From an uncultured Actinomycetes bacterium (GTDB taxonomy: Bacteria; Actinomycetota; Thermoleophilia; RBG-16-64-13), in assembly GCA_963714175.1 (NCBI GenBank), contig CAVQNN010000011.1, positions 111,686 to 175,685 on the forward strand: a stretch of DNA of 64,000 nt, given 5' to 3'. The notes under the pieces were generated by a model that saw only the letters and a program-made list of their open reading frames with translations, was not told the origin of the DNA and did no database searches. The position numbers were made by a program, and so were the translations under genes. This document shows positions 2,592 to 42,885 of this stretch, one piece after another; positions within the stretch are counted from its first letter, which is position 1, and every line of letters begins with the position of its first letter.

Positions 2592-2663
2592 TGCCCCCGG
2601 GGCGAATCGAACACCCGCACAAGGTTTAGGAAACCTCTGCTCTATCCCCTGAGCTACGGGGGC
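2592..2663 (-). tRNA. tRNA-Arg (anticodon CCT)
   Basis: The reverse complement GCCCCCGTAGCTCAGGGGATAGAGCAGAGGTTTCCTAAACCTTGTGCGGGTGTTCGATTCGCCCCGGGGGCA folds as a cloverleaf. It has a 7-bp acceptor stem, D-arm GCTC/GAGC, anticodon stem GAGGT/ACCTT with loop TTCCTAA, T-arm GGGTG-TTCGATT-CGCCC and discriminator A. CCA is not encoded. Confidence 0.9.
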
Positions 2664-14773: not shown

Positions 14774-15321
14774 TCAGACCTGGTAGTACGCTCCCCGCGC
14801 GCACGCCCGGCACAGGGTCTCACCGTTCTCGACCACCTCGCGCGCGTCCTGCACCTTCTCGCCGCAGCGCTCGCAGGTCACCGTGTGAGACGGGCTACCC
14901 GGTTTGTCTTCCTCGGGGATAGTCATCTTCACCGGAGTGCAGGTGAAGAGCTGTTCGTCGGCCCAGTCCTTCCACAGTTCCAGCGGATCGGTGTCCCGCC
15001 CGGCGTGCGGCACCTCCGGCCTGGGAGCCACTCGAACGGCACGCTCGGTGGCCAGATCGACGAAGGTAGCCGCCATCTTGCCGTAGTCGACCCACTTGAG
15101 ACGCCGCCGCCCGAGGGTCACTCCAGCGACCACGCTCACGGCGTCGCTGGCGCAGCGATCCATCTCGACGTAGACCAACAGGTCACGGTACGACTGGGGG
15201 TCGTCGATCCCCAGTTCGCGACAGCCGTAACGCGCCATGCGCACTCCCATAACCATCCCATGGCATAGGTGACCATGGAAGGCCTGGGCGGCCTCCAGAT
15301 CCTTCTCGAGAGAGCGCATGG
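14774..15321 (-). CDS. FmdE/FwdE-family (formylmethanofuran dehydrogenase subunit E-like) zinc-binding protein
   Basis: An internal ATG at 15321 gives MRSLEKDLEAAQAFHGHLCHGMVMG… plus C-terminal CERCGEKV…CRAC zinc-ribbon cysteines. The upstream part of the listed ORF is a non-coding-looking extension. Confidence 0.75.
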
Positions 15322-25220: not shown

Positions 25221-28200
25221 ATGAAGAAGAGATCGATCTTGCTGCTGTTGGTCTTGGGAGTGGTCGCTGTACTGCTCGTAGCGCCCAGTGTGGCCCTGGC
25301 GGACACATGGACCGACATAGCCGATGCCCAATGGCAGTCGCTGTATGGAGTCACCGCGGTTCGGGTCGACTCGGTCGCCGACGGCTACCCCGATCACACC
25401 TTCCGTCCGACCAACCAGGTGACCCGTGCCCAGTTCACCAAGATGGCGGTGAACGGCTTGGGGGTAGCTCAGAAGACGCCGGCTGCGCCCACCTTCTCCG
25501 ACGTGCTGAAAAGCAACATCTTCTACTCCTACATCGAGGGTGCGGCAAGCGCCGGGCTCGTCAACGGAACCGGGGCCAACAAGTTCAGCCCCAACTCGGC
25601 CATCACGCGCCAGAACGTAGCCGCTATCCTGGCGCGCTGGTTGTCGGAGACCGAACGGGATGCGCGTGGCTTCATAGCCGGCGCGACCGGGACGCACTAC
25701 GCCAGTTTCGACGCCTGGTATGCAGGTGAAGGCGCGACGGAGTTGGCGGCATTCACCGATTCCTCGTCCATCAGCAGCAAGATGCGTCCCTATGTGGCCT
25801 ATCTCGCCGCCCGCGGCATCGCCAAGGGCTCCGACGGCCGCTTCAGCCCGGGCTCCAACATCACCCGGGCACAGGCCGCCGTGCTGATTCTGCGCACGCT
25901 GGATGCGGGCTCAGGCTTCGAAACGGCGGTTCCCACCGTCACCTCCGTAAACCCGAACACCGGTCCGGCCTCGGGCGGCACATCGGTGGTCATCACCGGC
26001 ACCAATTTCGCAGCCGATGCCACGGTCAAATTCGGGGGCGCGAGCGCCAGCGGCGTGACCGTCAACAGCGCCACGCAGATCACCGCGACCTCGCCTCCCG
26101 GCACCGCCAACGCGAAGGTACAGGTCTCGGTCACTACCTCGGCCGGCACCAGCGCCAATACGGCAGGGGATGACTTCACTTACGGCAGCCCGTTGCCCAC
26201 CGTCACCGCTCTCAGTCCGTCGGCCGGCGCAGCCGCGGGCGGCGAGCTGGTGACCATCACCGGCGCCAATTTCACCTCGGGTGCGACGGTCAAGTTCGGC
26301 ACCACCGCGGTACCAGCCGCCGATGTGACCTACACGAGCGCCACGGAACTCAAGGCCTATGCTCCCGAGGGCACCCCCAACACCACGGTGCAAGTCTCGG
26401 TCACGACCACGGAAGGCACCAGCGCTGACACCTCAGCAGACAACTACGCCTACGGCAAGCCGGTCGTCAGCTCGATCAGCCCCGCGACCGGACCAGCCGC
26501 GGGCGGCACCACGGTGACGATCAACGGCAGCGGTTTCACCGACGACGTCACGGTCAAGTTCGGCCTCACCACGGTGACCGCGGCCAATCTCACTGTGAAC
26601 AGCCCCACCAAGATCACGGCCAAATCGCCGGCCGGTACCGCCGGCACCAAGGTTCAGGTCTCGGTCACGAACGACGAGGGCACCAGCTCCGACACCATCA
26701 ACGACAACTTCACCTACGCGGGGACCGGCCCCAGTATTTCCTCTCTCACCCCGTCCGCCGGACATGCCGGCGGAGGTGACGAGGTGGTCATCCAAGGCAC
26801 CAACTTCCCCACCGATGAGAACGCCGATCTGGCGGTCTACTTCGGAACGGTGAAGGTCGACTCCAGCGACATCACGCTCGACTCCGCCACGCGGATGACG
26901 ATAGAGGGCGCCCCTGCGCAAGCGGCAGGCATCAAGGTGGTCGACGTCTCCATCGCCACTGACGGAGGCAGCAGCCTCAACACCCCTGCTGACGACTACA
27001 GCTACGGCGCCCCGGTCATCACGGCCATCACCCCGGCGGCCGGCCTGCCCGTGGGCGGGTACAAGATGGTCATCACCGGCACCGGATTCACCGCCGACAC
27101 CAAGGTCTACTGGGACCGTGACGCGCTGGCCGCTGCGAAGTTCACAATCGACAACCCCACCCAGATCACGTTGGTCGTTCCCGCGGGCGACGATGATGAC
27201 TCAGTGGAGGTGACCGTCGAGAACGATGAGGGCGAGAGCAACGTCATGGAGTTCGAGTATGACGAGGATCGGCCCTACATCACCTCTATCAGCCCGAACG
27301 CGGGCAACTACCTGGGCGGTGGTTCGGTGACCGTCAAGGGCATCAACTTCCCCACCGAGAAAGAGGATGTGACGGTCAAGTTCGGGACCAAGGCGGTCCC
27401 AACGACGGACATCACGTCGATCACCGCTACTCAGATCGTGGTGAAGGCGCCTGCGCCCCTGCTGGCCAGTGCCGACATCACGGAGGTGGCGGACATCTCG
27501 GTGCAGAGCGACGACGGTACCAGCCCCAACACGCCCGCCGATGACTACAGCTACGGCCGAGCCAGGGTCAAATCGATCGAGCCGAACGCCGGGCATCCCG
27601 AGGGCGGCGCCGTGGTGACCGTTGTCGGTCAGGGCTTCGTGGACGGCGTGTTGGTCCACTTCGGCACCACCCAGGTGCCCTACGGCAACATCACGGTAGT
27701 CAGCCCCACGCAGATCCGCGTGCTCGCACCTCCGGGTGACGACGGCGACAAGGTGCGGGTCAAGGTCACCAACGCCGACGGCGCGAGTATCGAGACCGAG
27801 AGCGTAGACGACGAATACCTCTACGACAGCGAGTACAACGCTCCTGTGGTCACGAGCATATCTCCGGACACCGGCCTGGCCGCCGGTGGCGCGGAGGTCA
27901 CGATCCTCGGGAAGAACTTCACCATCGGCGCCGAGGTCCGCTTTGGAGAGAGTGAGGCGACCGATGTGGAATATGTCGACTCCACCAAGCTCGTCGCGAC
28001 CTCACCGGCCGGCCCCGAGGGCAAGAAGGTGCACGTGGTGGTCGTAGTCGGAAACATGACCAGCGATGCGGAATTCGACACGGACGGCTTCACCTACGCC
28101 GCGGATGGTGATCCCATCATCACGGGTCTCAACGGCTCAGCGGAAGCCTATGGACCCAAGACCGGGGGCAACACTCTGATCATCACCGGCACCGGCTTCA

Positions 28201-28757
28201 GCAGCGAACCGACCGTCAAGATCGGCACCAGGACGGTGGACAGCGACAATGTGACGCTCAACAGCGCCACGCAGCTTTCCGTCATCGTCCCGGGCGTCGC
28301 CACCGTTGCCACCTACGACGTCAAAGTGACGAACACCCAGGACGACTACACCGTCGAGGACGCATACACGTACTTCACCATGGAGGTCGAGTACTTCTAC
28401 GGGACCAGTATCGGGCAGGCCGGGACGTGGCTACCCCTGGCCAACGAGCACTGGGCGCCAGCGGCGGTGACCAACATCCGGCTAAGGGTGGTCGACCAGG
28501 ATGGCGACGCTCTCGGCAACATAGATCTCTCGCACAGCTTCCCCCTGCTCTACTACTACAAGTCGGACTCTGACAAGGGCACGGTGGACCCGATCCAGGA
28601 TAAGACTGACATCCAGGGCTATCTCCACTGGCCCAGCTTCGGTGGGTCGTTCGCGGGCAAGAGCTACAGCCTGTCCCTCGGATTCGATGTGGACAACAAT
28701 GGCACCCTCACCGATGCCGACTACCGCAGAACCGTCTCGTGGGTCTGGGACATCTAG
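25221..28757 (+). CDS. giant S-layer/cell-surface protein C: signal peptide, 3 SLH, about 10 IPT/TIG domains and C-terminal domain (intact, 1178 aa)
   Basis: Single uninterrupted ORF with a signal peptide. SLH motifs: FSDV…IEGAASAGLVNG, …RQNVAAILARWL, …RAQAAVLILRTL. TIG repeats: PxxTSxSPxxGxxxGGTxVTIxGxxF…VxFG. The C-terminal 120 aa are homologous to the A and B tails. Confidence 0.9.
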   Translation: MKKRSILLLLVLGVVAVLLVAPSVALADTWTDIADAQWQSLYGVTAVRVDSVADGYPDHTFRPTNQVTRAQFTKMAVNGLGVAQKTPAAPTFSDVLKSNIFYSYIEGAASAGLVNGTGANKFSPNSAITRQNVAAILARWLSETERDARGFIAGATGTHYASFDAWYAGEGATELAAFTDSSSISSKMRPYVAYLAARGIAKGSDGRFSPGSNITRAQAAVLILRTLDAGSGFETAVPTVTSVNPNTGPASGGTSVVITGTNFAADATVKFGGASASGVTVNSATQITATSPPGTANAKVQVSVTTSAGTSANTAGDDFTYGSPLPTVTALSPSAGAAAGGELVTITGANFTSGATVKFGTTAVPAADVTYTSATELKAYAPEGTPNTTVQVSVTTTEGTSADTSADNYAYGKPVVSSISPATGPAAGGTTVTINGSGFTDDVTVKFGLTTVTAANLTVNSPTKITAKSPAGTAGTKVQVSVTNDEGTSSDTINDNFTYAGTGPSISSLTPSAGHAGGGDEVVIQGTNFPTDENADLAVYFGTVKVDSSDITLDSATRMTIEGAPAQAAGIKVVDVSIATDGGSSLNTPADDYSYGAPVITAITPAAGLPVGGYKMVITGTGFTADTKVYWDRDALAAAKFTIDNPTQITLVVPAGDDDDSVEVTVENDEGESNVMEFEYDEDRPYITSISPNAGNYLGGGSVTVKGINFPTEKEDVTVKFGTKAVPTTDITSITATQIVVKAPAPLLASADITEVADISVQSDDGTSPNTPADDYSYGRARVKSIEPNAGHPEGGAVVTVVGQGFVDGVLVHFGTTQVPYGNITVVSPTQIRVLAPPGDDGDKVRVKVTNADGASIETESVDDEYLYDSEYNAPVVTSISPDTGLAAGGAEVTILGKNFTIGAEVRFGESEATDVEYVDSTKLVATSPAGPEGKKVHVVVVVGNMTSDAEFDTDGFTYAADGDPIITGLNGSAEAYGPKTGGNTLIITGTGFSSEPTVKIGTRTVDSDNVTLNSATQLSVIVPGVATVATYDVKVTNTQDDYTVEDAYTYFTMEVEYFYGTSIGQAGTWLPLANEHWAPAAVTNIRLRVVDQDGDALGNIDLSHSFPLLYYYKSDSDKGTVDPIQDKTDIQGYLHWPSFGGSFAGKSYSLSLGFDVDNNGTLTDADYRRTVSWVWDI

Positions 28758-28789
28758 CAGCGTTCCGGTCTCCGACGACCAGATAGCAG

Positions 28790-28827
28790 AAACCAGAGAG
28801 GCCCGCTTCGGCGGGCCTCTCTGGTTT
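28790..28827. terminator. strong bidirectional hairpin terminator between convergent SLH gene C and the minus-strand cluster
   Basis: Perfect palindrome AAACCAGAGAGGCCCGC-TTCG-GCGGGCCTCTCTGGTTT, followed by T-rich sequence on both strands. Confidence 0.8.
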
Positions 28828-28882
28828 CGTCAGACTCTTGGGGCTGAGGGCTGCTGAAGAAGGAAGTCCCCCAAGGGGTGGT

Positions 28883-29284
28883 TCAGGTATCCGCCGCGTC
28901 GTCCGCTGCGTCGTCCGGGGCGCTATCCGGGGTTTCATCCGGCGCAGGGTCGACCCAACCGGCGAAGTGCCGCTGGAAGACCGCCTCCAGAGTCTCGGCC
29001 ACCTCGGTCGCTACAGCCCGGTAGCGTCCCAGGAGATCTCTGGCCTCCGGGGTCAGGTGCGATCCTCCACCCAGGCTGCCGCCGACGCTCCGGTCGAGTA
29101 GGGCGAAACCCAGACGCTCCTCAGCCGCGTGCAGGATGCGCCACGCCTTGTTGTACGACATACCCAGTTCCTGAGCAGCCTTGCGCAACGACCCCGACTG
29201 CTCCACGCCCTCCAGGAGCCGCGCAGGGCCGTCTCCGAAAGCTCTGCCCCGGTATTCAAGCCATAGTTTGTAGCTCAGTCGCAC
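28883..29284 (-). CDS. ModE-N-terminal-type winged-helix regulator (molybdate/tungstate-responsive-like HTH, no TOBE domain)
   Basis: 133 aa. LLEGVEQSGSLRKAAQELGMSYNKAWRILHAAEERLGFALLDRSVGGSLGGGSHLT resembles the ModE N-domain, including the GGxxGGG(S) loop. Confidence 0.75.
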   Translation of the reverse strand: MRLSYKLWLEYRGRAFGDGPARLLEGVEQSGSLRKAAQELGMSYNKAWRILHAAEERLGFALLDRSVGGSLGGGSHLTPEARDLLGRYRAVATEVAETLEAVFQRHFAGWVDPAPDETPDSAPDDAADDAADT

Positions 29285-29293
29285 TGTGGTGTC

Positions 29294-29974
29294 CTAACTC
29301 TGCGTCGTGCCGCTGTCCGGCGGGGCAGCTTGCGGCGGCACTGCGCCGGTCACTGCATCGGCCGGAGCCGGACTCGGCTGGGCACCCACTGTCGGCGCGC
29401 CGGCAGGCGTTGGCATGTACGGTGGCGGACTGATGGGCGGGCTAGGTGGCGGACTCATGGCGGCTGCAGCCGCAGTCGAGGCCGGGGACAGGTAGGTCTC
29501 GGTGCCGCAGTAAGGGCAGCGGACCAAGCCTTTCCCGGCCAGCTCCACCTGACCGCCGCAGTTGGGGCAGCTACCCTCCTTGATCTGAGCGGCCTCAGCC
29601 GATACCAATTCGCCCTTCTCCCAGTTCACATACCCTCTGAAGAGGTCCTTGCCGATGAGGTCATAGACGTAGGCCTTGACCTGCTCGCGGGTCAGGTTGC
29701 ATTCGATGGCCAGATCGGCGACCCCCACCCGTCCCCGGGTCATCACCGCGTTGAGGATGGTCCGCTCCTTGTCCGCCTCGCTCTCGGCCTTGATCTCTCC
29801 CTTCGAGGCCAACAACAGGTAGAGCCCCACGGCCACGAACGGCAGCGAGAACAACACCAGACCCAGGACATATCCTGCCTTGCTCCCAGTCGCCTCGGTC
29901 AGGCCGACCACCAGCCAGGCGGCGACTCCCAGACCGACGATGATCAGCACGATCCCGAGAATCCTGGTCCGCAT
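29294..29974 (-). CDS. membrane protein with cytoplasmic wHTH-like segment and zinc ribbon; Pro-rich C-terminus
   Basis: 226 aa with two N-terminal TM helices and CPNCGG…CPYCG. Confidence 0.75.
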   Translation of the reverse strand: MRTRILGIVLIIVGLGVAAWLVVGLTEATGSKAGYVLGLVLFSLPFVAVGLYLLLASKGEIKAESEADKERTILNAVMTRGRVGVADLAIECNLTREQVKAYVYDLIGKDLFRGYVNWEKGELVSAEAAQIKEGSCPNCGGQVELAGKGLVRCPYCGTETYLSPASTAAAAAMSPPPSPPISPPPYMPTPAGAPTVGAQPSPAPADAVTGAVPPQAAPPDSGTTQS

Positions 29975-30056
29975 CGTTTCCTCCTGGTTGCTCTGCTATC
30001 GCTACAGCCGACGCCCGGCCCGCGGGGCCGGGCGCCGGTATGGATTCGCTCTCCAC

Positions 30057-31908
30057 CTATCCTGCGCGGAAGCCGCCTCCGCCGCCTCCGCCGGAGAAGC
30101 CTCCCCCGAAACCGCCGCCGCCACCGGAAAATCCGCCGCCACCGAAGGCACCGCGCTTGCCGCCGCCGCTGGACGACGGGACCGAGGTCAGGGCGCTGGA
30201 CATGTTGCTCAGGCTGCTGAACAGACCGTCGGATATGCTCTCGAGGCTGAAGCCTCCTCCAGACGATCCACCGGCATTGGTGAGACCGCCGCCCAGACCT
30301 CCTCCAAGACCGCCCGTGGCGACCGGTCCGGAGCCTCCCGGGAAGGGAATGATCACCGGCGGATGATACCAATCGGGAGAAGAAACGGTCAGGCTTTCGA
30401 AACGCCTCACCCAATCCTTCTCCACGCCGAAAGCGATGGCATAGGGCAGGTACTTCTCGAAGCTCTCCTTCGCCGTCTCCATCTCCTGGAACCGGGTGAG
30501 ATCCTTGAGGTAGTTGCGGAACGCCTCGCACTTGCGCTGCTCCTGGGCGCCTTTGGGCGTCCGCTGCGGCATGCGAGGCGCAAACACCCATACGATGATC
30601 ACAGACACGATCGAACCGAACATGAACCAACCCCACCCGGAGATGTCGGCCATGGCCATGATGACCGTCAGAAGCCCGAGGATGACCGCGACGACGAAAC
30701 CATAGCCTACCCAGCGCTCCCGGGCCTTCTTGGGATTGCTGAAGAACAGCTTGCGACTCGTCACGTCTTCGTAGACCTGATTGACGATCGGCTCGACGTG
30801 CGTGTAGAAGTGGTTCTTCAGTTCGGCGGTCGTGACCTGGTCGGGGTGCTTCGCGTCGAAGAGGGACTCCGCGACCTTCTTCTCGAAGCCCTGCAGATCG
30901 TCGAGCGCCTTCCGGCGCGTGAAGATGGTCACCGCTTTGCGTGCTGCTCCCTCTTTCGCCGTGTCGGTGATCTCGATGTAGCCACGCCGGGCCAGGTCGA
31001 CGATGGTGGCGATCACCTCTTTGGTGTCGACCTTCTCGTCGATGAGCGCTCCGGCCAGACCCGGAGACAGATCCGCGGGAGGCTCGGCTCGCGTACTTGG
31101 CGTAGACCGCCGCCGGCTCATCGCGCCCACGCCGGCGCCAGATCAAGAGCATGCCGAGGAAGAAGAGAATGGGGAGAAGGAACCCTATCTTGGGTATCAG
31201 GAATTCCGCCAGACGCCGCGCCGTCCACGTGAACTTGACCACGCCCTTGGGGAACCCGGTCACGATCCAGAAGTTGGTGTACGGAGGGATGTCTGAGGCC
31301 TGATACACCATGGTGGAGGCGGCCGGCGAGGTGACGTTCGTCTCCACGCCATATCCGGCCTGGACGGCCTGAGTCATGTCTCTCCGAGGGAACCGATCCC
31401 GGCAGCTTGACGGTGGCCTTGACCGCCCCGATGGGCACCGGGGTGTCGGCGTCGAACACGTACCACCTCAGCTCGTCGCCCTCGTCGCAGAACATGACCA
31501 CGTTCTTGGCCCGATAGTGGATGGTCCAGGTCGACGAGGTGTCGGTGAGGTCGAAGTTCATCTGGATGTAGAGAGTGTCGCCCTCTTTGAAGGTGCTGTA
31601 CGTCCCCGGCGAATCACCCTTGGGTAAGGGGGTACCGTTGGCGTCGCGGACTTCGATGTCGGTGATGCCGCCCGTGTTTTCGGTCGGTATGTCGCGGGCG
31701 ACGAAGTGATAGTTGCCCTCGAAGGTGAAGGTGACCATCTCGTCGACGATCACGTCGCCGTTCTCCTGGACGTCGAGTAGCACGTCCATGTTGTCGATGC
31801 GCCAATCCTTGGCCGCGGCCGAGGCCGTCGGACCGGCGACGCAGCGCCAACAGGGCGCAGGCAAGCGGCCAGGAGCGCGAAGCCCCAGAGGTGACGCCGA
31901 TGGCTCAT
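30057..31908 (-). CDS. DUF2207-family membrane protein with Gly-rich C-terminal tail (at least 3 apparent frameshifts)
   Basis: ATG at 31908 gives a signal-like MSHRRHLWGFALLAAC. The extracellular DUF2207 N-domain lies in frame 31118..32884, the TM plus cytoplasmic part in 29944..31377 and 30057..31130 (LSPGLAGALIDEKVD…DLARRGYIEI), and the tail is (GGGF)n. Confidence 0.7.
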
Positions 31909-33042
31909 TGCTTGTCGCCCTCGGGAGCCTCATCGGCCTTCTCGGCTTGCTGCAGCGCGCTCGAGGCTCCGCCGGAGCCGCGGCCGGAGCCGTCAGGTTC
32001 TGACCGCAGTTGGGGCAGAATTTCGAGCCCGCCGGCAGGGTCGCCTTGCACTTCGGGCACGTCACCGTCGCGGCCAGATTCGCGCCGCAGTTCGGGCAGA
32101 ACTTGCTGCCGTAGGGGATGTCCTGGCTGCAGTTGGGGCAGCGCACCTTGGGCTGCGCTCCACCGGCCATGGCCTGCTGCAGCATGCCGGGAATCATCAT
32201 GCCCAGGCCGGCGCCGGCGCCCAGGCCCAGACCGGCCGTGGCCGCCGAGCCGATGTCGGTGCCGCCCCCTCCTCCGCTGCCGCCGCCTCCCTTGGCCAGG
32301 TCGCCGATGGCCTGCGCGGCCTTGTACTGGAAGTAGCGGTCCATGCCGCCGACGGCTTCCATGCCGGAACGCTCGTCGATGCGTTTCTGCACGTCCTCGG
32401 GCGGCGAGATGGCGTTGACCAGAAAGTCGACGATCGCCAGGCCGTACTGGGCGAAGTCGTCCCTGATCCGGGCCTTGAGACCGGCGCCCAACTCGTCGAA
32501 GTAGCGCGGCAGATCGAGCACGGAGTCGAGGCTCTCACCCAGGATGTCCGCGAGCCGCCCGATGATCACGCCCCGCAGGAAGTCCTCGATCTGGGCGTTG
32601 GTGTAGATGCCGCGCGTGCCCACGAGCTTGACCACGAACAGCTTGGGATCGGTGATCTGGAAGGTGTAGATGCCGTTGGAGCGCAGTCGGATCATCTTGA
32701 ACTCGGAGTCGCGGAACAAGATGGGCTCGACGGTGCCCCACTTCAGGTCGGTGAAGGTCCGCTTGCTGACGTAGAAGACCTCGCACCGGAAGGGTGTGTC
32801 GCCGTAGAGAGGCGTGGTGAAGATCGACGGTGAGCAGGGGTATGTTCTGCGTGGCCAGGGTGTGCCGGCCCGCGTCGAAGACATCGTAGGCCTTGCCGTC
32901 TCTGAAGAAGACAGCCCATTGGCTCTCGCGCACGATCAACTGGGAACCGAGCTTGAACTCGCCCGAGCCCTGCTCGGGGATGCGATGGGCCATCTCGTTC
33001 GCCTTGTTCGTCAACGTACTCGATGAGATCCATGAGGGCCAT
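31905..33042 (-). CDS. SPFH/band-7 domain protein of the COG4260 type with C-terminal double zinc ribbon (apparent frameshifts)
   Basis: The start MALMDLIEYVDEQ (ORF 32743..33042) shifts to LIVRESQWAVFFRDGKAYDVF (ORF 32535..33014) and then to the 588-aa frame (…RCPNCSQDIPYGSKFCPNCGANL…CPKCKATLPAGSKFCPNCGQNL). The stop TGA overlaps the DUF2207 ATG. Confidence 0.7.
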
Positions 33043-33137
33043 CGATTACCTCCCAGCTCCGGTGATGAGGTTTTCCCGCTCGGAGAAGCGGGCGTCCAAT
33101 GCTTCGATCCGATCGTCCAGGATACCGATGTCGGCGC

Positions 33138-33563
33138 TCAGCGACGGGCTGCCGACGGCGAGCGCCGCGGCGAGGTCGCGTATGCCCTATCGCTTCTGTC
33201 TCGAGCCCCTGGTCGAACGCGCTGCAGCTCGTCGATCTTCTGCGCGCCCACCTTGGTGGTGTCGAACAGGCCGGCATAGCCGTAGTCGGCGAACTGTATG
33301 CGGTCCCGCACCTTGCGCACTTTGCGCATGATGACGTCGACTTCTCCCAATCCCTCCAGGTTGCCGCTCTTCATGAGGTCGAGCTTCAGTTCGTCCAGCG
33401 TGCCCAGGCAAGAATCGACGTACTCGGCCACGTACACCCGCTCGATCTTGTCGGCCTCCCGCCCCAGTTCCTTCTCCTTGTAGCCCTTGTAGCCGGGGAT
33501 CTTCTCCATCATCCGCTCGAACCAGTTCTTGCTCTCCTCTACCCTGTCATCGATCCCAGCCAT
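33138..33563 (-). CDS. hypothetical charged/coiled cytoplasmic protein
   Basis: 141-aa ORF MAGIDDRVEESKNWFERMMEKIPGYKGYKEKELGREADKIERVYVAEY… It is co-oriented and lies immediately upstream of the SPFH gene. The C-terminus may be frameshifted. Confidence 0.55.
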   Translation of the reverse strand: MAGIDDRVEESKNWFERMMEKIPGYKGYKEKELGREADKIERVYVAEYVDSCLGTLDELKLDLMKSGNLEGLGEVDVIMRKVRKVRDRIQFADYGYAGLFDTTKVGAQKIDELQRVRPGARDRSDRAYATSPRRSPSAARR

Positions 33564-33618
33564 GATCTCCCCTTTGCTCTATGTGACCGATCGAGCCCGC
33601 GCGTCGGGACTTCGGACT

Positions 33619-34306
33619 CTACGCTACCAGACCATCGAACTCGCGCAGCAGCAACCTCCAGTTGGACTCGTGTATGTAGCGAGGATCCCAGACGGCGGGA
33701 ATGAACAGCAGCTCCTCGCCGACCGCCTCGAGCTCGTAGTCGACAGACCGCAGGTCTTTGGCCTCGTGCGATTCGACCGCCAGATAGACGAAGTGTGCCA
33801 GTATCCGGGCATCCCGTCTGCCCACCACCACGGGAGAGAAGGTGCCGAAGCCGGGTCCGGCTGCGTCGCCACTCGATTCGACTCCAAGCCGGCCCCCACG
33901 CAGCATCGGTCTCTGCGCCGCGGCAGGGCCGCTACGAGCCCCGGGGAGAGCTCCAGCATCGGCTGCGCCTCGCGTCAGACTCACCCCCAACCGCTGCACC
34001 ACCGGACGCATCAGCGAGAAGGCGGGGACGTAGAGATAGGCAGGCTCCGGGCGCAGCGACCTTGCGGATGCGCTCCCAGGCGGAGTCGGAGGCCGCGGTC
34101 ACGGAGACAGCCAGACGCCACACCGCCAGATAGTGTACCCCTCCGGCCACGGCCAGCTCAGTGGTCGCTGAAGCGGTCAGGGGGGAGAACGCGGTGAATC
34201 CGTCTTCGCTCGGCTCATGTACCGACCCGCAGTTCGGGCAGATGAAGAGGGCGGCATCGTCACCGCCCTCAAGGGCAAGCCCACAGTTGTCGCAGAGCAG
34301 CGGCAC
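33619..34306 (-). CDS. hypothetical protein with N-terminal zinc ribbon (apparent frameshift)
   Basis: ORF 33932..34306 (MPLLCDNCGLALEGGDDAALFICPNCGSVHEPSEDG…) continues into ORF 33619..34011 in another frame. Confidence 0.55.
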
Positions 34307-34310
34307 CAGA

Positions 34311-35347
34311 TCAGCCGGAGAAAGGTTCGTGGTATTCCACCTCCCCCACCGCGCGGAATCGCCAGATCGACAGTATGCCTATCACAGACACTATCACGGC
34401 TGCGGCCACCATTGAAACGCGGCCCGTCTCCCGGGTGACGGCGAGCAACACGAGAAGGGCGACCACGATGGCCATGGCGACCACCTGCAGCGCCAGAAGC
34501 TGGATGCGCCGCGAGTTGTCGGCCGGAGCGACGGCCGAGTTCACGCTTCCGTCGCGGCCGTTCACCACTACGCGACAGATACGATTCCCGCGATCTGTAG
34601 CGAACCACCCACAGGGGATAGTAGAGGAGCGCGAGTGGATTCCCGGAAGGCGAACAGATGACTGTCGGGAGACGACGCCCCCGAGAGCGGCTGCAAGCGC
34701 CGCCGCCCGCCCTGTCGCCGTTACTTCGCTCGCCGGACCCTTCGGCCTCCAGGACGGTCGCCGCCGGGTCCAGTTCGCCGGCCAGCAGGGGCAACAGAAG
34801 CTCCCGGCCGGTGAAGCGAGGGCGTGTCGCGCCCAGGGCCTCCAGGTCGGTGGCCGCCTGGTAGAAGCGGCGTTCCTGAAGGCGCGGCTCCTTGATCCCC
34901 TTCTTGACCAGCCTGAGTTCCAACCGGCCGCCGCCTTCTTCCTCGTCGAACATCGAGCCAGCCGACCGAGATGCTCGGACGGACAACCTCGGTCTCGGTC
35001 CGCAGGATGTGGCCGAACTCCCACCCCGCCAGCAGCGCCTTGTGCTCCCAGATGGGAGCGAAGATCAGACGGGCATCGACGAAACGCGCGTCACGCGCCC
35101 GCTTGGCGATGCCAGGGTAGTCGCGAAGCCAGGCGGCCCCAGCAGCAGCGGCTTTGAGCCGGTTCACACGCGGGGGAAAGTACCAGCGGGAGAAACCTCC
35201 GTGCTCCTTCACCGCCACGCGCACCCCACAGTGGCGGCAGACGAGGATGCGCCGACCTTCTCGAACGCTCAAAGGACCGGCGCACTGCGAACACTGGACC
35301 GAGTGAAGCACCTCCTCTTCCGGAGCGGACACAGCCTGGGCCGTCAT
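34311..35347 (-). CDS. hypothetical protein with zinc ribbon and C-terminal TM helix (apparent frameshifts)
   Basis: Pieces from three frames: MTAQAVSAPEEEVLHSVQCSQCAGPLSV…CRHCG (34721..35527), MFDEEEGGGRLELRLVKKGIKEPRLQERRFYQAATDLEAL (34177..34986), and the tail …VAAAVIVSVIGILSIWRF…* (34311..35024). Confidence 0.5.
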
Positions 35348-35527
35348 CCTCCAGAGCCGGAAGCGACCGGGGCCGCGTCGTCTCGGGCCCCCAGCTCCCG
35401 CTCTCGGGTCAGAGTCGACCCGCAGAACGCACAGACAGCCGCGTCGGCATACCCGGGCATGACCACCGGGGCTCCGCACTGCGGGCAACTGATCTCGGTC
35501 GTGTTGTTGGTCGTCGTGTAGCATCAT
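35344..35527 (-). CDS. small zinc-ribbon protein (about 60 aa)
   Basis: Frame …ISCPQCGAPVVMPGYADAAVCAFCGSTL…* ends with TGA overlapping the ATG of the next gene (ATGA). The N-terminus is uncertain. Confidence 0.35.
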
Positions 35528-35644
35528 CCTGATAGTCTATCGCCGCGACCAGGTCTGACCTTGAATCCATCGCCTTGCGCCGACAGCGGCTTCCATGCCA
35601 GTCGCGGCGTCGGATACCGTCTGCGAGTCAGCCGAGGAGAATGG

Positions 35645-37100
35645 CTACGCGTAGCGCAAGACGCCGGCTACGCCGCCGAGCTCGTCCAACGCCGGGTATG
35701 TTCTCTCCGACCTCCACCTGTCCGTTCTGCGATGATCGCCAAGCCGGACGATCTCGCCCACGGCGTCGGCTATGGGCACGATGGCACCGCCGCATACCGG
35801 GCAACGCTCGGTCGCGACCAGGCCGACCCAGCCGCAGTCCACACAGCGCCAGCCCGGCACCCGATAGTTGCGATCGACGAGCAGGGTCTGCACCTGGTGG
35901 CGGCCCACCGCGCTGAGCACGTCGTCAAAGCCGGAGACCCCCCGGCCGCCGTGACCCAGGCCCTCTTTGATGCGCGCGGCCAGCGCGACCATCTCCTCGT
36001 GCCGGGCCTCTTCCACGGCCTGCCGGGCGCTGACCACCATCTGAGCCGTGGTGGCCGCTGCGTCAAGAGGTATCTCCGCCACTATCTTGGCCGCCACGCT
36101 GGCCGGCAGCGTGCGCCGGAAGCCGCTGGCGATATCGTGCTGGGCGCAGAGTGCCACCCGTCTCACGCCAGAAGTCTCGAGCAACTTGGCCAGTGAGGCC
36201 CCGACCTCCTTGAAGTGCAGATCGACCAGGCTGTCCTGACGAGCAGCCGCGTAGTACTCCTTGATGGACAGCTCGCCGCGTCTCTCGGTCGCTGCTCCGC
36301 AGCCACGGCCCGTCGAGATCGTCCTCGTGGGCCACTCCCCACTCGTCCACCAGGAACAGGGTCGATTCGTCCCGGCTCACGCGCGCCACCACGAAGGGCT
36401 CCAGAAGCGAGAGGGCGTGCGCCACCGGACGGATATAGGGCGAGGGTTCGATCACGACACGGTTGACCAGTCGGAAGGGCAGTTCGATCCGCTCGTAGAA
36501 GCCGCCGCCCCGTCGGCGAACACGGCCAGACCCTGGGTGGCCGGAGTCACGTCGTACATGAGCACGTCGAGCACATGGTCCAGATCGGTCTGTAGAAGGC
36601 GTTTGTTCTCCTTGGATACTCCGCTCTCCTTGGTGATGCGGTTGAACTCGCTGTGGAGGAATGCGGGAGCAAACAGCCGCCAATCGTCGAGGCGGCTGGT
36701 GGACAGAGTGACGGTCAGGAATGCGGCACCTGACGCCTTGGCTGCAGCAAGAGCTTTCAACTTGTCCTTGACCCCGGCCGCGCTGTCGATCATGAATCGC
36801 CGCCTTCCACCTGGCCCTTCGACTCCGCCGGCTCACCTGCCTCGGCGGTTCCTTGCTCATCCTGCTCGGCCCGGGGGTACCTGCTCGGGTGGCGGCACGG
36901 ATTCTCGATCGTGAAGGGCCTGCTCTCTGCGCCACCTGCTCCTCTCGCTCACGGAACTTGTCCACCAGGGCAGACTTGCCCTTGTCGTGGGCTGGCTCGG
37001 CCATGTTGACGTTGCCTGTGTCGGAAAGCGCGGACCTCATCTTCTGCACGGGGGTGAGGGGGCGCTCTCTGCCAGAGCGTTCGACCTTCTTGTCGGCCAT
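35645..37100 (-). CDS. bacterial eRF1/Pelota-like (baeRF-family) protein with C-terminal zinc ribbon (apparent frameshifts)
   Basis: The C-terminal ORF 35645..36184 has an eRF1-domain-3-like segment (GRGVSGFDDVLSAVGRHQVQTLLVDRNY) followed by CVDCG…CPVCGG. The middle and N-terminal pieces lie in ORFs 36452..36793 and 36063..37100. Confidence 0.55.
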
Positions 37101-37266
37101 CTTGTCCCCTTTCGGTTCTTAGGAGGTAAGGCCTGTGGTCGCCGAACGTGTAGTTGACTTACTACCCAGCGCCGGGCGGACCTAACACGCCCGGTTTGTG
37201 TCTTTCACACCGTTGGGCATATTGTGGAGACTGCCGGGGCCTCACTGTCTGGAGGAGCTTTGCTCC

Positions 37267-39853
37267 ATGGACGACTTCGAGAAGCAGGGCGCGTTCTACC
37301 TTGGCCGCGAGTACGAGCTATCAACGAAGCAGAGCGGCGGACCTCTTCTCTATGACTCGAAAGACCTGGTCACCCACGGCGTCTGTGTGGGCATGACAGG
37401 CAGCGGCAAGACCGGGCTCTGCGTGGGTCTGCTCGAGGAAGCCGCCCTGGACGGGATACCCTCCATCGTCATCGATCCCAAGGGCGACCTGAGCAACCTG
37501 ATGCTCACCTTCCCCGGCCTCACGGCCGAGGACTTCCTCCCCTGGGTGAGCCAGGAGGAGGCCGGCAAACAGGGCCTGACTCCCGAGGCTTTCGCCCAGC
37601 AGCAGGCCGAGATGTGGAAGAAGGGGCTGGCCGACTGGGGGCAGGATCCGGCTCGTATCCAGCGCCTGAAGGATGCCGCGGACTTCGCCATCTACACGCC
37701 CGGCTCCAACGCCGGTCTCCCGGTGAGCATCCTCAAGTCCTTCGCTGCGCCCGCCCCTGCCGTACGCGACGACTCCGAGGCGCTCCGTGACCGCATCAAC
37801 ACGGCCGCCACGAGCATCCTGGGCTTGGTGGGCGTGACGGCCGATCCCATCCAGAGCCGGGAGCACATCCTTCTCTCCAGCCTGTTCGACTCCGCTTGGT
37901 CGAAAGGCCAGGATCTCGACCTCGCCGGCCTCATCAGGCAGATCCAAGCGCCGCCGTTCCAGCAGGTCGGCGTGCTCAGTCTGGAGTCCTTCTACCCGGC
38001 CAAGGACCGAGCCGCACTGGCCATGCTGCTCAACAACCTGCTGGCCGCGCCCACCTTCCAGTCCTGGTTGGAAGGAGAGCCGCTCGACATCGGGGAGATG
38101 CTGTTCACGAGAGACAAGAAGCCCCGGGTGACGATCTTCTCCATCGCCCACCTCTCCGACGCGGAACGCATGTTCTTCGTCTCGCTTCTGCTCAACGAGG
38201 TGCTGGGCTGGGTCCGGGCTCAGCCGGGAACGGGAAGCCTGCGCGCCATCATCTACATGGACGAGATCTTCGGCTTCTTCCCTCCGGTGGCCGAGCCTCC
38301 ATCCAAGCGGCCGCTCCTGACCCTGCTCAAGCAGGCTCGAGCGTTCGGAGTGGGCATCCTCCTGGCCACGCAGAACCCCGTCGACTTGGACTACAAAGGC
38401 CTCGCCAACGCGGGCACCTGGTTCATCGGCCGTCTGCAGACCGAGCGCGACAAGGACCGCCTCCTCGAGGGCCTGGAGGGAGTGGCCGCCGGCACCGAGG
38501 CCAAGTTCGACCGGCAGAAGATGGAGGAGACCCTGGCCGGCCTGGGCAAGCGGGTCTTCCTCCTCTACAACGTGCACGAGGACGCCCCCGTGACCTTCCA
38601 GACCCGCTGGACCATGTCGTACCTGGCCGGCCCACTCACGCGGAGTCAGATCAAGACCCTGATGGATCCACGCCGGCCGCCGGCCGCCGCACGGCAACCT
38701 GCACCGGCCGCGGCTGGAACAGCAGGCGGGGCCGCGGCGTTCGGAGCGGCGCCAGCCGTCGTCACAGGCGTGGCCATCGGGGGAGCGAACGCCGCGATAA
38801 CTGGTGTCGCGACAGCGGGCATCGACATGACGAGCGCCGGAGCACCGGGAGCGCCGGGCGGGAGCATGAACTCCACGTCGACCGCGTTTGCCGCGACCAC
38901 GCTGCCGCCGGAAGTCCCCGCGGAGATACCTCAGTACTACCTGCCGCTCCGTGGCGACGACCCCCGCCGGACCCAGCCTTGTCTACCGGGCAGGGGTGTT
39001 GGCCGCCGCGACGGTCAACTTCGTCAGCACCGGGACTGGGGCCAGCTCGTCCAAGCGGATCCGCCGCATCGCCGAGGCGCCCGAGAGCGCCCTGGCTCTC
39101 AACTGGGAGAAGGCCACCGACCTCGAAGCGACCCTGGAGGATCTCGACCGTCAACCCTATCCCGGGGCGACCTTCGCCCCCATGCCGGCGGCCATGACCA
39201 AGGTCGCCTCGTATCGGTCTTGGGGGTCGGACTTCTCGGATTGGGCGTTCCGTACGCAGACGGCCGAAGTGTTCAAGAGCGCAGGGTTCAAGCTGAGCTC
39301 CGACCCGGGGGAGACCGAGGACGACTTCCGGCGCCGGCTCGAGCGAAGCGCGAAGGCCGAGCGCGATGAGCAGGAAGAGAAGCTCACGAAGCAGTTCGCC
39401 ACCAAGAAGGCGGCTCTCGAGCAGAGGGTGCTCAAGGCGGAGCATGCCAAGGAACGCGAGGCCGAGCAATCCAAGGGTCGCAAGATGCAGACCGCCATCT
39501 CCTTCGGGGCCACGCTTCTGAGCATGTTCACGGGCAAGAAGAAGCTCAGCAGCACCACTCTCGGCAAGGCCACGACCGCCATGCGCGACGTGGGTCGCAG
39601 CATCGACGAGGGAGGCGACGTCAAACGAGCCGAGGAGTCTCTCGAGGTCCTCAGACAGAAGCTGGCCGATCTCGAGACCGAGCAGCAGGAAGCTATCGAC
39701 GCTCTGGAGTCGCAGATCGACCCAGCGGCCGAAACGCTCGAAACGGTGCTGATGCGGCCTCGCAAGAGCGACATCACGGTGGATTCCCTGGGGCTCGTAT
39801 GGATGCCCTACTGGCAGGACGACACAGGCGCGTTGATGGGCGCGTGGGGATGA
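37267..39853 (+). CDS. HerA/FtsK-like P-loop ATPase of the YjgR (DUF853) type with long coiled-coil C-terminal extension (about 860 aa, one apparent frameshift)
   Basis: ATG at 37267 with a [54 protein letters not shown] parallels the YjgR Walker A/KGDL region. [27 protein letters not shown] is also conserved. The frame switches near 38950 into ORF 38888..39853. Confidence 0.75.
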
Positions 39854-39901
39854 GAGAGGAGCAGTAGGGGTGGCAACATTCGACCAAAGGAGAGATAGGG
39901 G

Positions 39902-40354
39902 ATGCTAAAGGACTTCAAGGCGTTCATCGACAGAGGCAACCTTCTGCAGTTGGCCGTGGCCTTCATCTTGGGCGTCGCGTTCGCCGCGGTTGTGACCTCG
40001 TTGGTGAACGACATCATCATGCCGGCTGTGGGTCTCGGGCTCGGAGGGGTCGACTTCACCAACCTGTTCGCGGTGATCAAGGATGCCCCGACGGGCCCCG
40101 CCGATTTTGCGAACCTCCAGGCGGCCAAGGATGCCGGCGCCGTCACCATCAACTACGGTGTGTTCATCAATGCCATCATAGTGTTCATCATCGTGGCGCT
40201 TGTGCTGTTCTTCATCATGAAGGCCTACATGAAGACGCAGAAGCCCGCCGAGGCGACCACTCGCGACTGCCCGTTCTGCGCCACCGCCGTTCCGATCGCG
40301 GCCACCCGTTGCCCGCATTGCACCTCGGAACTGCCGGCCGTGGTCAAGACCTGA
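39902..40354 (+). CDS. mscL: large-conductance mechanosensitive channel MscL with C-terminal zinc-ribbon extension
   Basis: MLKDFKAFIDRGNLLQLAVAFILGVAFAAVVTSLVNDIIMP is the canonical MscL TM1. The C-terminus is DCPFCAT…CPHCTS. Confidence 0.9.
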   Translation: MLKDFKAFIDRGNLLQLAVAFILGVAFAAVVTSLVNDIIMPAVGLGLGGVDFTNLFAVIKDAPTGPADFANLQAAKDAGAVTINYGVFINAIIVFIIVALVLFFIMKAYMKTQKPAEATTRDCPFCATAVPIAATRCPHCTSELPAVVKT

Positions 40355-40385
40355 CAGGACTTCCCTGATAGCACGCAGCGACCGT

Positions 40386-40420
40386 CCGGCGGGGCGGGGC
40401 GCGAAGCGCCCCGCCCCGCC
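40386..40420 (+). terminator. GC-rich hairpin terminator after mscL
   Basis: CCGGCGGGGCGGGGCGC-GAAG-CGCCCCGCCCCGCCG followed by TCTTGT. Confidence 0.55.
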
Positions 40421-40539
40421 GTCTTGTCGCCCGCCTCCACCCACCCGCACCCGCACCGCTTGGCGATCGGCGACGCTCCCGAGGAGGCTGCTAGGCGCGC
40501 GCCTTCTATCCACGCCCTGAGGCTATACTCTCCGTCACC

Positions 40540-42885
40540 ATGCCAAACCACCCCCGAGACGATGAGCAGGGCTTCTTCGCCACCTGTCCGCGCAACACGG
40601 AGGGGTTGCTGCTGGACGAGCTTCGCTCCCTGGGGGCCACCGACGCCACAGAGACACGCGCCGGCGTCTCCTTCTCTGGGCCCCTGTCGTTGGCCTACCG
40701 AGTCTGCCTCTGGTCCCGCGTGGCCAGCCGGGTCCTCCTGAGGTTGGCGTCGTTTCCGGCGGCCTCGAGCCCTGACGACCTCTACGAGGCAGTCCACTCC
40801 ATGCCCTGGGAAGATCATCTGAGCGCGTCCGGCACCCTGGCGGTGGAAGTGACCTCCACCGTCAGGCAGGGGCCTTTGGCGACCCTCAATACCCACTTCG
40901 CCGAGCAGCGTGTCGAAGGACGCGGTCGTCGATCGTTTTCGCGCGAACACGGGGACACGCCCGGGTGTCGACCTGGCCCGCCCCGACATCCGCATCAACC
41001 TCCACCTCACTCCGATCGAGACCGGGGTCAGTCTGGACCTGTCCGGCGACGGCCTGCATCGCCGCGGGTACCGCCTCGAGGGCGGTGAGGCGCCGCTCAA
41101 GGAGAACCTGGCCGTCGCCATCCTCATGAGAGCCGGCTGGCTCCGCATCGCCGCGGCCGGCGGGGCGCTGGTCGATCCCATGTGCGGCTCGGGCACGCTC
41201 CTGATCGAGGGGGCGCTGATGGCCGCCGACGTCGCTCCGGGGTTCCTGCGCGACTACTATGGTTTTCTCGGATGGAAGGGCCATCGATGCTCAATCCTGG
41301 CGCGAACTGGTGACGGAGGCTGAAGAGCGTCGCAGACAGGGTTTGAAGCAACTGCCGGTGCTTCAAGGCTTCGACATCGAGCAGCGCGCCATCGGCACAG
41401 CGAGAGCCAACGCAAGGAGAGCCGGGCTGGCCGGCCGCATCGTCTTCGAACGGCGCCCTCTGGCCGCCCTCGTCGCCCCGACGCTGAGCGGTACCTCCGA
41501 GACAGATGGGGCCGCAGTGCCCCCTTCGGTGGCCGGCGGCCTCGTGGTCACCAACCCGCCCTACGGCAAGCGCCTGGGCGAAGTAGAGGAACTCGTCGAG
41601 GTCTACGAGACTCTGGGCGAAAGGCTGAAGGCCGGCTTCTCCGGTTGGGAGGCGGCCGTCTTCACCGGCAATCCCCAGCTGGGCGCTCATCTCGGCCTCC
41701 GAGCGCACCGTGTCAACGTGCTGTACAACGGCCCTCTCGAATGCAGGCTGCTTCTCTTCCATATCGGTGAGCGCGCCGGGGGCGCTATCCCCGCTCCAGC
41801 TGCGCGAGAAACCCCTTCGCGACTCTTCCGCGGGGACAGCGCCCCCGGCGCGGACCACTCATTTGGAGTCCCTTCTGGCAGCCATGATTTGGCCAGTCGT
41901 CTCGGCGACGCTCGCGTTCAGAACCCGCTCGCTGCTGGCGCGGTCATGTTCTCGAATCGGCTCTCCAAGAACCTCAAGCACCTGCGTCGCTGGGCCGCTC
42001 GCGAAGGCGTCCACTGCTACCGTGTCTACGATGCCGATCTGCCCGAGTACGCGGTCGCCGTCGATCTCTACGACGACTGGGCGCACGTGCAGGAGTATGC
42101 GCCTCCCGGCACCGTGGACCCGGTGCGCGCCCGGCGGCGTCTCAAGGAGGTCGTGGCCGTCGTGCCTGAGGCCCTGGAGATCCCGCCTGGGCACGTGGTG
42201 CTCAAGGTACGTCGTCCACAGAGGGGCGCGGACCAGTACCAGAGGTTGGGCGAGGAGGGCCGATTCCTCGAGGTGGCAGAGGGGGGTCTTCGCTTTCAGG
42301 TGAACCTCACCGACTACCTCGACACCGGTCTCTTCCTCGACCATCGGCCCACTCGGCAGCTGATCCGCGAACTCGCTCCCGGGCGACGGTTCCTGAATCT
42401 CTTTGCCTACACCGGCTCGGCGACGGTCTATGCGGCCGCGGGAGGTGCGCCCTCCACTACTACCGTGGACATGTCGTCCACGTATCTGGACTGGGCCCGC
42501 CGCAATCTGTCTCTCAACGGCTTCTCCGGCATCGAGCCACGGCTTCGTCCAGGCCGACTGCCTCGAGTGGCTGGAGCGGGCCGCCGCCGGCAAAGGGGCC
42601 GGCGCCTACGACCTCATCTTCTTGGATGCCCCCACCTTCTCCAACTCCAAGAGCATGACCACCACACTCGATATCCAGCGTGATCACGCCGGACTCATCC
42701 GCACGACCGCCCGCCTCCTCTCACCCGAGGGGGTCTTGCTCTTCTCCACCAATTTCCGCCGTTTCAAGCTCGATCCGGCGCTGACTGAGGACTTTGCGGT
42801 GGCCGACATCACCAAGCAGACGATTCCCCCGGATTTCGCCCGCACTCCCCGTATCCACTCCTGCTTCCGCATCCATGGCGGCTGA
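40540..42885 (+). CDS. rlmL: bifunctional 23S rRNA (G2445-N2/G2069-N7)-methyltransferase RlmKL (THUMP plus two MTase domains; at least 3 apparent frameshifts)
   Basis: ORFs 40540.., 40910.., 41259.. and 42403..42885 are co-linear with RlmKL ([47 protein letters not shown]). Confidence 0.75.

Follow-up and report, generated by a model that had tools for sequence, protein, structure and literature searches.

The minus strand of the window (the whole 64,000-nucleotide stretch that was analysed) carries, between positions 28883 and 35527, a tight co-directional run of seven genes, named here B to H. By analogy with known systems, the cluster is probably a phage-shock-type envelope-stress scaffold or sensor organized around a soluble SPFH protein, E. 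With the same confidence, we regard it as a PspA-less variant of the YdjGHI/SamGHI membrane-stress system, unlike the Bacillus operon in gene content. Genes B-C-D-E-F-G are likely to form a single operon, of which H would be a passenger. The seven genes are as follows:

Gene B, 34311–35527, minus strand: about 400 aa once the frames are corrected, with two Zn ribbons at the N-terminus, two YpeB/PepSY-like helix-and-sheet units and a C-terminal TM hairpin.
Gene C, 33619–34306, minus strand: about 225 aa, with a single Zn ribbon at the N-terminus plus a soluble domain that is conserved but whose fold is uncharacterised.
Gene D, 33046–33563, minus strand: 171 aa, an uncharacterised four-helix protein.
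Gene E, 31905–33042, minus strand: 377 aa, a soluble SPFH protein (Band_7_1) with a Gly/Ala-rich linker and a C-terminal double Zn ribbon.
Gene F, 30057–31908, minus strand: about 615 aa, a DUF2207 membrane protein.
Gene G, 29294–29974, minus strand: 226 aa, unbroken, with a pair of TM helices, what is probably a winged helix, a Zn ribbon and a Pro-rich tail.
Gene H, 28883–29284, minus strand: 133 aa, unbroken, an HTH protein of the ModE N-terminal type, encoded at the end of the run.

Alignment to the related locus L002 located approximately 16 frame-breaking indels across B–F. Most of them were a single extra base in the window, outside homopolymers; no single-base deletion was present in B–F, and G and H had zero frame-breaking indels. 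Because a contig encoding a 99%-identical SPFH protein carries all the genes unbroken (399, 225, 171, 377, 615, 226 and 133 aa), the breaks are, on comparison of the sequences, assembly errors and not pseudogenes. Orthologous operons, with housekeeping genes alongside, are also unbroken in all the clade genomes. The rival explanation, to which we give almost no credence, is a decaying, pseudogenised operon having no present function in the source organism; it would draw on the accumulation of about 16 breaks in B–F while the adjoining 3.5-kb SLH gene, G and H are unbroken. Natural decay does not fit because the single-base-insertion pattern, to which nearly all the events conform, is combined with 99% identity between the stitched frames of E and the unbroken protein P0001. 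The same type of break was moreover found in other genes of the window (x96, HerA-like and RlmL) and in the long-read contig L004.

Frame correction modified the gene count. The sequence-only reading had described a co-oriented minus-strand cluster, which is real, but had divided it into eight genes, among them four zinc-ribbon proteins in addition to the SPFH protein; seven genes are left, with three Zn-ribbon proteins (B, C and G) and the SPFH protein. What had been taken for a separate small Zn-ribbon protein (35527–35347) is the first Zn ribbon of B, as the unbroken relatives P0395 (402 aa), P0396 (399 aa) and L002 (409 aa) run straight through '...CGSTLTRERELGA...ALKETAQAVSAPEEEVLHSVQCSQCAG'. 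The window sequence crosses three frames inside the B linker, and therefore the ATGA at 35344–35347, one of two overlaps interpreted as translational coupling, is not a gene junction but an internal Met codon of B exposed by an inserted base. The other, at 31905–31908, is a true overlap between the E stop and the F start, conserved as ATGA or GTGA in 13 of 19 clade loci. Single-base insertions also interrupt C (two), F (four) and D (two), the last having split the 171-aa protein into the 'charged 141-aa protein' initially described. Small ORFs and apparent 'translational coupling' in this window can thus arise from insertion errors. In a promoter and terminator scan, sites were no commoner than expected by chance, and no RNA element was found by Rfam near the cluster.

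The Pfam matches of E to Band_7_1 (5.7e-58) and DZR (4.7e-12) bore out its first description as an SPFH protein with a double Zn ribbon. No TM segment was found by hydropathy, and E is of the YdjI/SamI type. From the N- to the C-terminus, the hydropathy profile of F corresponded to a signal/TM segment followed by an N-domain on the outside and one TM helix; after a cytoplasmic stretch come two further TM helices, the C-domain and the (GGGF)n tail, which is cytoplasmic. Both of its Pfam domains, DUF2207 on the N-terminal side (1.6e-21) and DUF2207_C (4.5e-50), exceeded the gathering scores, and F also matched TIGR04222; its identification as a DUF2207 protein with a (GGGF)n tail was thus confirmed. 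The proposal that SPFH and DUF2207 constitute the core pair was not: Anaerolineae and the actinobacterial clade are the only groups where an E-type SPFH protein comes with DUF2207, and the near-universal partner is D. The architecture of B, with its two Zn ribbons, YpeB/PepSY-like fold and TM hairpin, is of the YdjG/SamG type. Gene C is conserved across the clade, and in Desulfobacterota it is joined to B-like proteins as a fusion; no Pfam family other than the Zn ribbon was found in it. The possibility that B and C are paralogues was rejected, the Zn ribbon alone being in common (hhalign).

A total of 160 related loci (80 genome loci and 80 metagenome loci) was gathered. D is a near-obligate partner of the SPFH subfamily of E: the two genes were adjacent in 74 of the 84 loci anchored on E and in all 25 informative loci anchored on D. 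Conservation of the gene neighbourhood was thus observed for D–E across more than 12 bacterial lineages and in Hadarchaeota (L022), an archaeal carrier of the module. The gap of 3 nt between the D stop and the E start is conserved, and D possesses two invariant motifs, PGYxGYxxKExRRxxDK and RFAxYGYAGxFD. Around this pair, B/C or F+G are lineage-specific additions, and most D–E loci are without G and H. In eight loci of Chloroflexia/Thermomicrobiales, a PspA_IM30 gene (3.8e-50) sits between D and E, and there D is fused to DUF4178, a PSP-associated domain (PMC11237479). In 12 loci, from Acidobacteriota and Clostridia, the intervening gene encodes a ZnR-Toastrack (DUF4097) protein. D itself displayed no profile-level homology to PspA_IM30 (hhalign probability of 0.2%) and no detectable relation to any solved fold family, and sequence searches of the PDB with D and with E found nothing. 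Its assignment as PspAA was rejected, as the PspAA partner in PMC11237479 is an alpha/beta domain whereas D is all-helical. For the D-family-like LIMLP_15305, the literature mentions a small-RNA neighbour and gives no function.

Gene G, which has a pair of TM helices at its N-terminus and a ribbon of the form CxxC...CxxC, is highly conserved alongside D–E in Chloroflexota and also in Actinomycetota; its Pro-rich tail is clade-specific. The cytoplasmic part showed sub-threshold matches to the Z-alpha, DDRGK1 and AsnC winged helices (E 0.016–0.6), so that from the original description of a two-TM wHTH/Zn-ribbon protein the TM helices and the ribbon are retained while the wHTH is weakly supported. 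A relationship between G and the cytoplasmic part of DUF2207 was rejected, with no signal in hhalign. H matched HTH_1 (2.9e-10) and ModE_repress (2.2e-16), the latter at 59.7 bits, below the curated cut-off of 98.5; no Mop (molybdate-binding) domains were found in H, which consists of the HTH part alone. Judged by its sequence, H is ModE-N-like and not a full ModE. H was found only in the closest clade, and in relatives it is usually followed by DUF364/FecCD/ABC/FmdE genes (in L001, L002 and L004, genes for metal transport and FmdE), which suit a ModE-type regulator better than the module does. H is probably a neighbour and not a module member; the ModE-N-domain assignment is kept, but not the role of dedicated regulator.

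The parallel with Bacillus YdjGHI rests on Pfam family, architecture and fold. The present cluster and B. subtilis pspA-ydjGHI (samGHI) are both tight operons (PMC8581546; bioRxiv 10.64898/2026.02.06.704340; PMC11237479). E and YdjI/SamI are both soluble Band-7/SPFH proteins with C-terminal Zn ribbon(s) (PMC8581546), and B and YdjG/SamG both carry two Zn ribbons, a YpeB-like domain of NTF2/PepSY-like fold and TM helices (PMC11237479). Each operon further encodes another membrane protein, with one domain on the outside and a Gly-rich tail in the cytoplasm, which is the DUF2207 protein F here and the TPM-domain YdjH/SamH in B. subtilis; no TPM-domain protein was found in the cluster (Pfam) or in the flanks of related loci. 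Unlike the B. subtilis operon, the present one is without pspA: neither a pspA nor a Toastrack gene was found in the operon or, by tblastn (a weak test), in the 64-kb window. The link to PspA is common to both, in-operon for Bacillus and via the Chloroflexia relatives for the present module. C, D and G are additional conserved genes, unreported for the Bacillus operon, and the carrier here is an uncultured actinobacterial lineage. The matching E and B architectures and the position of the SPFH subfamily next to PspA or Toastrack elsewhere favour the membrane-associated stress module suggested by the sequence-only reading (PMC8581546, PMC11237479).

Other known systems share part of this organization. 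Modularity of the same kind is seen in the PspA-free PSP variants with Toastrack/PspC of Ravi et al. 2024 (PMC11237479), where the partner domains Toastrack, DUF4178, Band-7 and Zn ribbons recombine with or without pspA; relatives of the present module likewise contain ZnR-Toastrack, or D-DUF4178 with PspA. DUF2207 has no occurrence in the text of PMC11237479, and the passages of it that were searched contain no counterpart of the D family. The S. mutans protein SMU.243 belongs to the same Pfam family as F (DUF2207), and its mutant is sensitive to acid and oxidants and impaired in biofilm formation, which by analogy would fit a stress role for DUF2207; its neighbours are mecA and uppP, and an SPFH partner is not reported (PMC10457818). 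In archaeal ESCRT ('Meth_adaptin') loci, SPFH-coiled-coil-Zn-ribbon proteins are linked to ESCRT-III/PspA-family genes (PMC11188069). These loci have in common with the present module a Zn-ribbon SPFH protein and an archaeal occurrence (Hadarchaeota here), but their partners are adaptin-appendage, GOLD and Vps4, and none of D, B, F and G is reported (PMC11188069).

We propose, by analogy with B. subtilis PspA-YdjGHI/SamGHI, a model in which all protein contacts, the stress signal and the output are inferred. In this model, B, F and G would be membrane anchors recruiting the cytosolic E to the inner membrane face. B would present its cytoplasmic Zn ribbons and PepSY-like domains on the TM hairpin, and F, with the DUF2207 domain outside and the Gly-rich tail in the cytoplasm, would stand in for the TPM protein YdjH/SamH. 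E would assemble at the membrane with its constant partner D, and might then curb the signalling of the membrane sensors or bring in effectors, for instance a PspA encoded elsewhere. A wider proposal, which we put forward tentatively and at less than even odds, is that D and E, the SPFH protein with Zn ribbons, are the ancient core, made of two proteins, of an unnamed PSP-type envelope-stress system present in more than 12 bacterial lineages and one or more archaeal lineages. D would act as an adaptor, linking the SPFH scaffold to swappable partners (PspA/ESCRT-III, Toastrack, YdjG-like Zn-ribbon anchors or DUF2207+G); this role of D is a guess.

Other functions can be imagined for the same genes. 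The module could carry out membrane-to-transcription signalling independently of PSP, F sensing the outside, E and D gating, and the membrane-tethered G and/or H giving the transcriptional output. The strong conservation of G with D–E, the weak winged-helix matches of its cytoplasmic part, the predicted DNA-binding-type HTH protein H that closes the run, and the restraint of SamGH signalling by SamI in B. subtilis (bioRxiv 10.64898/2026.02.06.704340) all point in this direction. We nevertheless consider it unlikely, as G and H are missing from most D–E loci, the closest of the sub-threshold G matches are protein- or Z-DNA-binding winged helices and not classic regulators, and the context of H in relatives is one of metal-transport genes. 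SPFH proteins often scaffold proteases (see the discussion in bioRxiv 10.64898/2026.02.06.704340), and we also considered a classical SPFH scaffold like HflK/C or SPFH-NfeD, a cage or a quality-control device, that would be unrelated to PSP and would regulate a membrane protease or channel. E has in common with SPFH-NfeD operons and HflK/C cages (QmcA-YbbJ, YqiK-YqiJ, FloA/T) the SPFH domain and, as proposed for E, a role as a scaffold close to the membrane, and MscL is located approximately 4.4 kb upstream. E differs from them by having no TM or hairpin anchor, no flotillin region or long coiled-coil lid and no NfeD partner. No NfeD, FtsH or other protease was found in or beside the module across 84 loci, or in the flanks of 62 loci, and MscL is on the opposite strand, with a linkage limited to the clade, which makes this explanation quite unlikely.

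The idea of a defence module, raised by the sequence-only reading, would make the cluster an anti-phage (abortive-infection) system whose SPFH and Zn-ribbon proteins sense infection at the membrane. This appears very improbable. PADLOC gave no match to a core protein, the sole match being that of an N-terminal fragment of B to PDC-S64, a weak Zn-ribbon match (E 6e-4), and viral contigs contained no relatives of the module. In every clade genome, the module is fixed at one chromosomal site, between RlmL/MscL and housekeeping genes, and its eRF1-like neighbour matches ribosome-hibernation-factor families. No defence-island context was seen either: in the flanks of 62 other loci the genes were housekeeping ones unrelated to the module, and none was a defence gene.

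As factors of membrane maintenance, SPFH proteins and PspA/ESCRT-III are universal and, to our knowledge, a connection between the two was known from one Bacillus operon only. This locus and the 160 related ones show that D, a helical protein not yet characterised, is constantly partnered with the YdjI-type SPFH protein, and that the proteins around the D–E pair (PspA, Toastrack, YdjG-like, DUF2207) are exchanged from phylum to phylum. This provides a first testable context for two large uncharacterised families, DUF2207 and the LIMLP_15305-like D family, and cultured Chloroflexia or Leptospira are possible places for testing the SPFH–PspA link. If the D–E pair is indeed the core of the system, Bacillus YdjGHI would be a single derived branch within a far larger family, and a defined functional context would be available for DUF2207 for the first time.

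Six-frame translation of positions 28800–35700 revealed a minus-strand run of conserved reading frames that repeatedly switched frame. After correction, the run comprised the following genes:

34311–35527, minus strand: B, two Zn ribbons, a YpeB/PepSY-like domain and a TM hairpin
33619–34306, minus strand: C, soluble Zn-ribbon protein
33046–33563, minus strand: D, 171-aa four-helix protein
31905–33042, minus strand: E, SPFH protein
30057–31908, minus strand: F, DUF2207 protein
29294–29974, minus strand: G, membrane protein with a probable winged helix
28883–29284, minus strand: H, ModE-N-type HTH protein

The sequence-only reading had counted eight genes. Its separate small Zn-ribbon protein corresponded to the first ribbon of B: in the intact relatives P0395 and P0396 and in B of locus L002, the protein was uninterrupted from ribbon 1 to ribbon 2 across a disordered linker, which in the window was spread over all three frames. 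At 35344–35347, the ATGA taken for a gene overlap was an internal Met codon of B exposed by an inserted G. Since both belong inside B, the cluster holds seven genes. The second proposed overlap, between E and F, was genuine, with ATGA or GTGA in 13 of the 19 loci of the closest actinobacterial relatives (the clade); in the remaining ones F started a few bases past the E stop. The gap from the D stop to the E start was 3 nt in the window and in the relatives L001 and L002.

The SPFH protein stitched from the window pieces was 99% identical to P0001, an intact 377-aa protein from a 15-kb JGI contig with co-directional genes of 399, 225, 171, 377 (SPFH), 615 (DUF2207), 226 and 133 (HTH_1) aa. This order recurred on L001 (a 1.77-Mb contig), L002/L003 and a 200-kb contig. 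Base-level alignment with L002 revealed that approximately 16 indels break the frame between 30057 and 35527, nearly all of them single extra bases in the window outside homopolymers, and no single-base deletion. Because the corrected proteins were almost identical to intact relatives and the long-read contig L004 was broken in the same manner, we read the frame breaks as assembly errors. Pseudogenisation of the operon is disfavoured by the error pattern, namely inserted bases and the near identity of the stitched SPFH protein to P0001. Other single-base insertions were located in the gene of a 96-aa protein (two, 36793–37100), a HerA-like gene (one) and RlmL (three, 40561–42879), and none broke the frame in G, H, the adjoining 3.5-kb SLH/TIG gene (25221–28757), MscL or FmdE. 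This very uneven distribution across 25221–42879 suggests a long-read assembly whose consensus is locally poor.

In E, a Band_7_1 domain (Pfam, 5.7e-58) was joined by a Gly/Ala-rich linker to a double Zn ribbon, and no hydrophobic segment was found. F carried DUF2207 N and DUF2207_C domains (Pfam), and had a signal/TM segment followed by three more TM helices, an arrangement which would make the N-domain extracellular and the (GGGF)n tail cytoplasmic. B and C had only the ribbon in common; C consisted of one ribbon and a conserved soluble domain without any family match. G combined two TM helices with a ribbon and a stretch that matched winged helices weakly. The 133-aa H was devoid of Mop domains.

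H had been proposed as a dedicated regulator of the module, which is unlikely as it precedes metal-transport/FmdE genes in relatives. There (L001 14241–18634, L002 and L004), H was directly followed by DUF364, FecCD, ABC, Peripla_BP_2 and FmdE genes, whereas the window FmdE homologue (14777–15319, minus strand; 81% identity to the L001 copy) lay 14 kb from H. These positions hint at regulation of those genes by H and at a rearrangement of the locus in this genome. The SLH/TIG gene (plus strand, convergent with H) encodes an intact 1178-aa surface protein with three SLH domains and nine IPT/TIG repeats; in relatives its position was held by the metal-transport and FmdE genes. Upstream of and co-directional with the cluster were the 96-aa protein and a 381-aa baeRF_family10 (eRF1-like) protein (35645–37100, minus strand), the latter with weak matches to NCBIfam ribosome-hibernation-factor families (Rv2629, MSMEG_1130; E 1e-9 to 5e-12). 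This pair was kept only in the actinobacterial clade, and some relatives had a HAD hydrolase gene between the pair and B. A P-loop protein of ~830 aa (in 37198–40351, plus strand), which matched HerA/DUF87 faintly and whose C-terminal half is a long coiled coil, was followed by MscL and then RlmL, a block whose synteny with the SPFH operon extended to all close relatives. Rfam matched nothing in the window except a tRNA gene (2592–2663, minus strand).

An exhaustive search provided diverse SPFH representatives, and a five-sequence alignment of these, used as locus query, retrieved 80 loci from species-representative genomes of Actinomycetota, Chloroflexota, Acidobacteriota, Desulfobacterota, Vulcanimicrobiota, Clostridia, Armatimonadota, Aminicenantes, Ignavibacteria, several candidate phyla and one Hadarchaeota archaeon. 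Their arrangements were established by iterative HMM searches of six-frame ORFs from all loci.

Table. Gene arrangements in the locus census.
D-E alone: 20 loci; various phyla
B-C-D-E-F-G(-H): 16 loci; all actinobacterial clade
D-E then B/C-like ribbon proteins: 10 loci; Desulfobacterota, Hadarchaeota
D-[ZnR-Toastrack]-E: 9 loci, plus 3 truncated; Acidobacteriota, Clostridia, one Sphingomonadales MAG
G-D-PspA-E: 7 loci, plus one PspA-E locus truncated upstream; Chloroflexia, Thermomicrobiales
F-G-D-E or G-D-E: 6 loci; Anaerolineae

Pfam confirmed PspA_IM30 (3.8e-50), DUF4097/Toastrack (4.4e-16) and the D-DUF4178 fusion. Among loci with sufficient upstream sequence, only three lacked D and, when loci were conversely retrieved from metagenome contigs with D as the anchor, E was downstream on the same strand in all 25 informative ones. 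Conserved synteny across many phyla was seen for D-E; the B-C-D-E-F-G(-H) set was confined to the actinobacterial clade. We read D as a constant partner (cofactor) of the SPFH protein. In Chloroflexia and Thermomicrobiales (L056 8100–9152, L040, L064, L068, L082, L083), D was fused C-terminally to DUF4178, a domain familiar from PspA-polyamine operons, with PspA and then the SPFH gene next. A ~450-aa protein without Pfam match lay between D and E in Vulcanimicrobiota (L030 8589–9941; L028; L041), where other phyla have PspA or ZnR-Toastrack. In two more distant actinobacterial loci (L017 13437–15605; L019 13458–15620), a second DUF2207 gene followed G, replacing H.

The closest studied system is pspA-ydjGHI/samGHI of B. 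subtilis. [quoted passage not shown] According to Ravi et al. (PMC11237479), YdjG carries a YpeB-related domain along with two Zn ribbons and a TM segment, and YdjH a TPM domain and a low-complexity tail. E and B match the architectures of YdjI and YdjG, respectively, whereas F is not a TPM protein and resembles YdjH in its layout of outside domain, TM segments and Gly-rich tail. PspA, Toastrack and DUF4178, all associated with the phage-shock protein (PSP) response, each interrupt the D-E pair or are fused to it in other phyla. On these grounds we read the window operon, by analogy, as a putative PspA-less variant of a YdjGHI-type envelope-stress module, carrying DUF2207; the protein contacts, signal and output of such a module are inferred.

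A signalling role through G is possible and would fit the SamGHI model. The lack of an anchor in E and the absence of NfeD or protease, both in the operon and in the flanks of 62 loci, disfavour a classical SPFH-NfeD or protease cage. A defence role, one of the options suggested from the sequence alone, is likewise disfavoured: the core proteins had no PADLOC match, a search for viral relatives was negative, the chromosomal position was fixed in the clade, and the flanks in 62 non-actinobacterial loci were unrelated housekeeping genes. Only in the actinobacterial clade was the module accompanied by H, MscL, the HerA-like ATPase and the genes of the eRF1-like and 96-aa proteins.

That Zn-ribbon SPFH proteins are linked in general to PspA/ESCRT-III is already known (PMC11237479, PMC11188069). 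No account of the D family, of a D-SPFH pair or of an SPFH-DUF2207-G arrangement came up in the searchable literature. The main value lies in the cross-phylum D-E core and in a first context for DUF2207.
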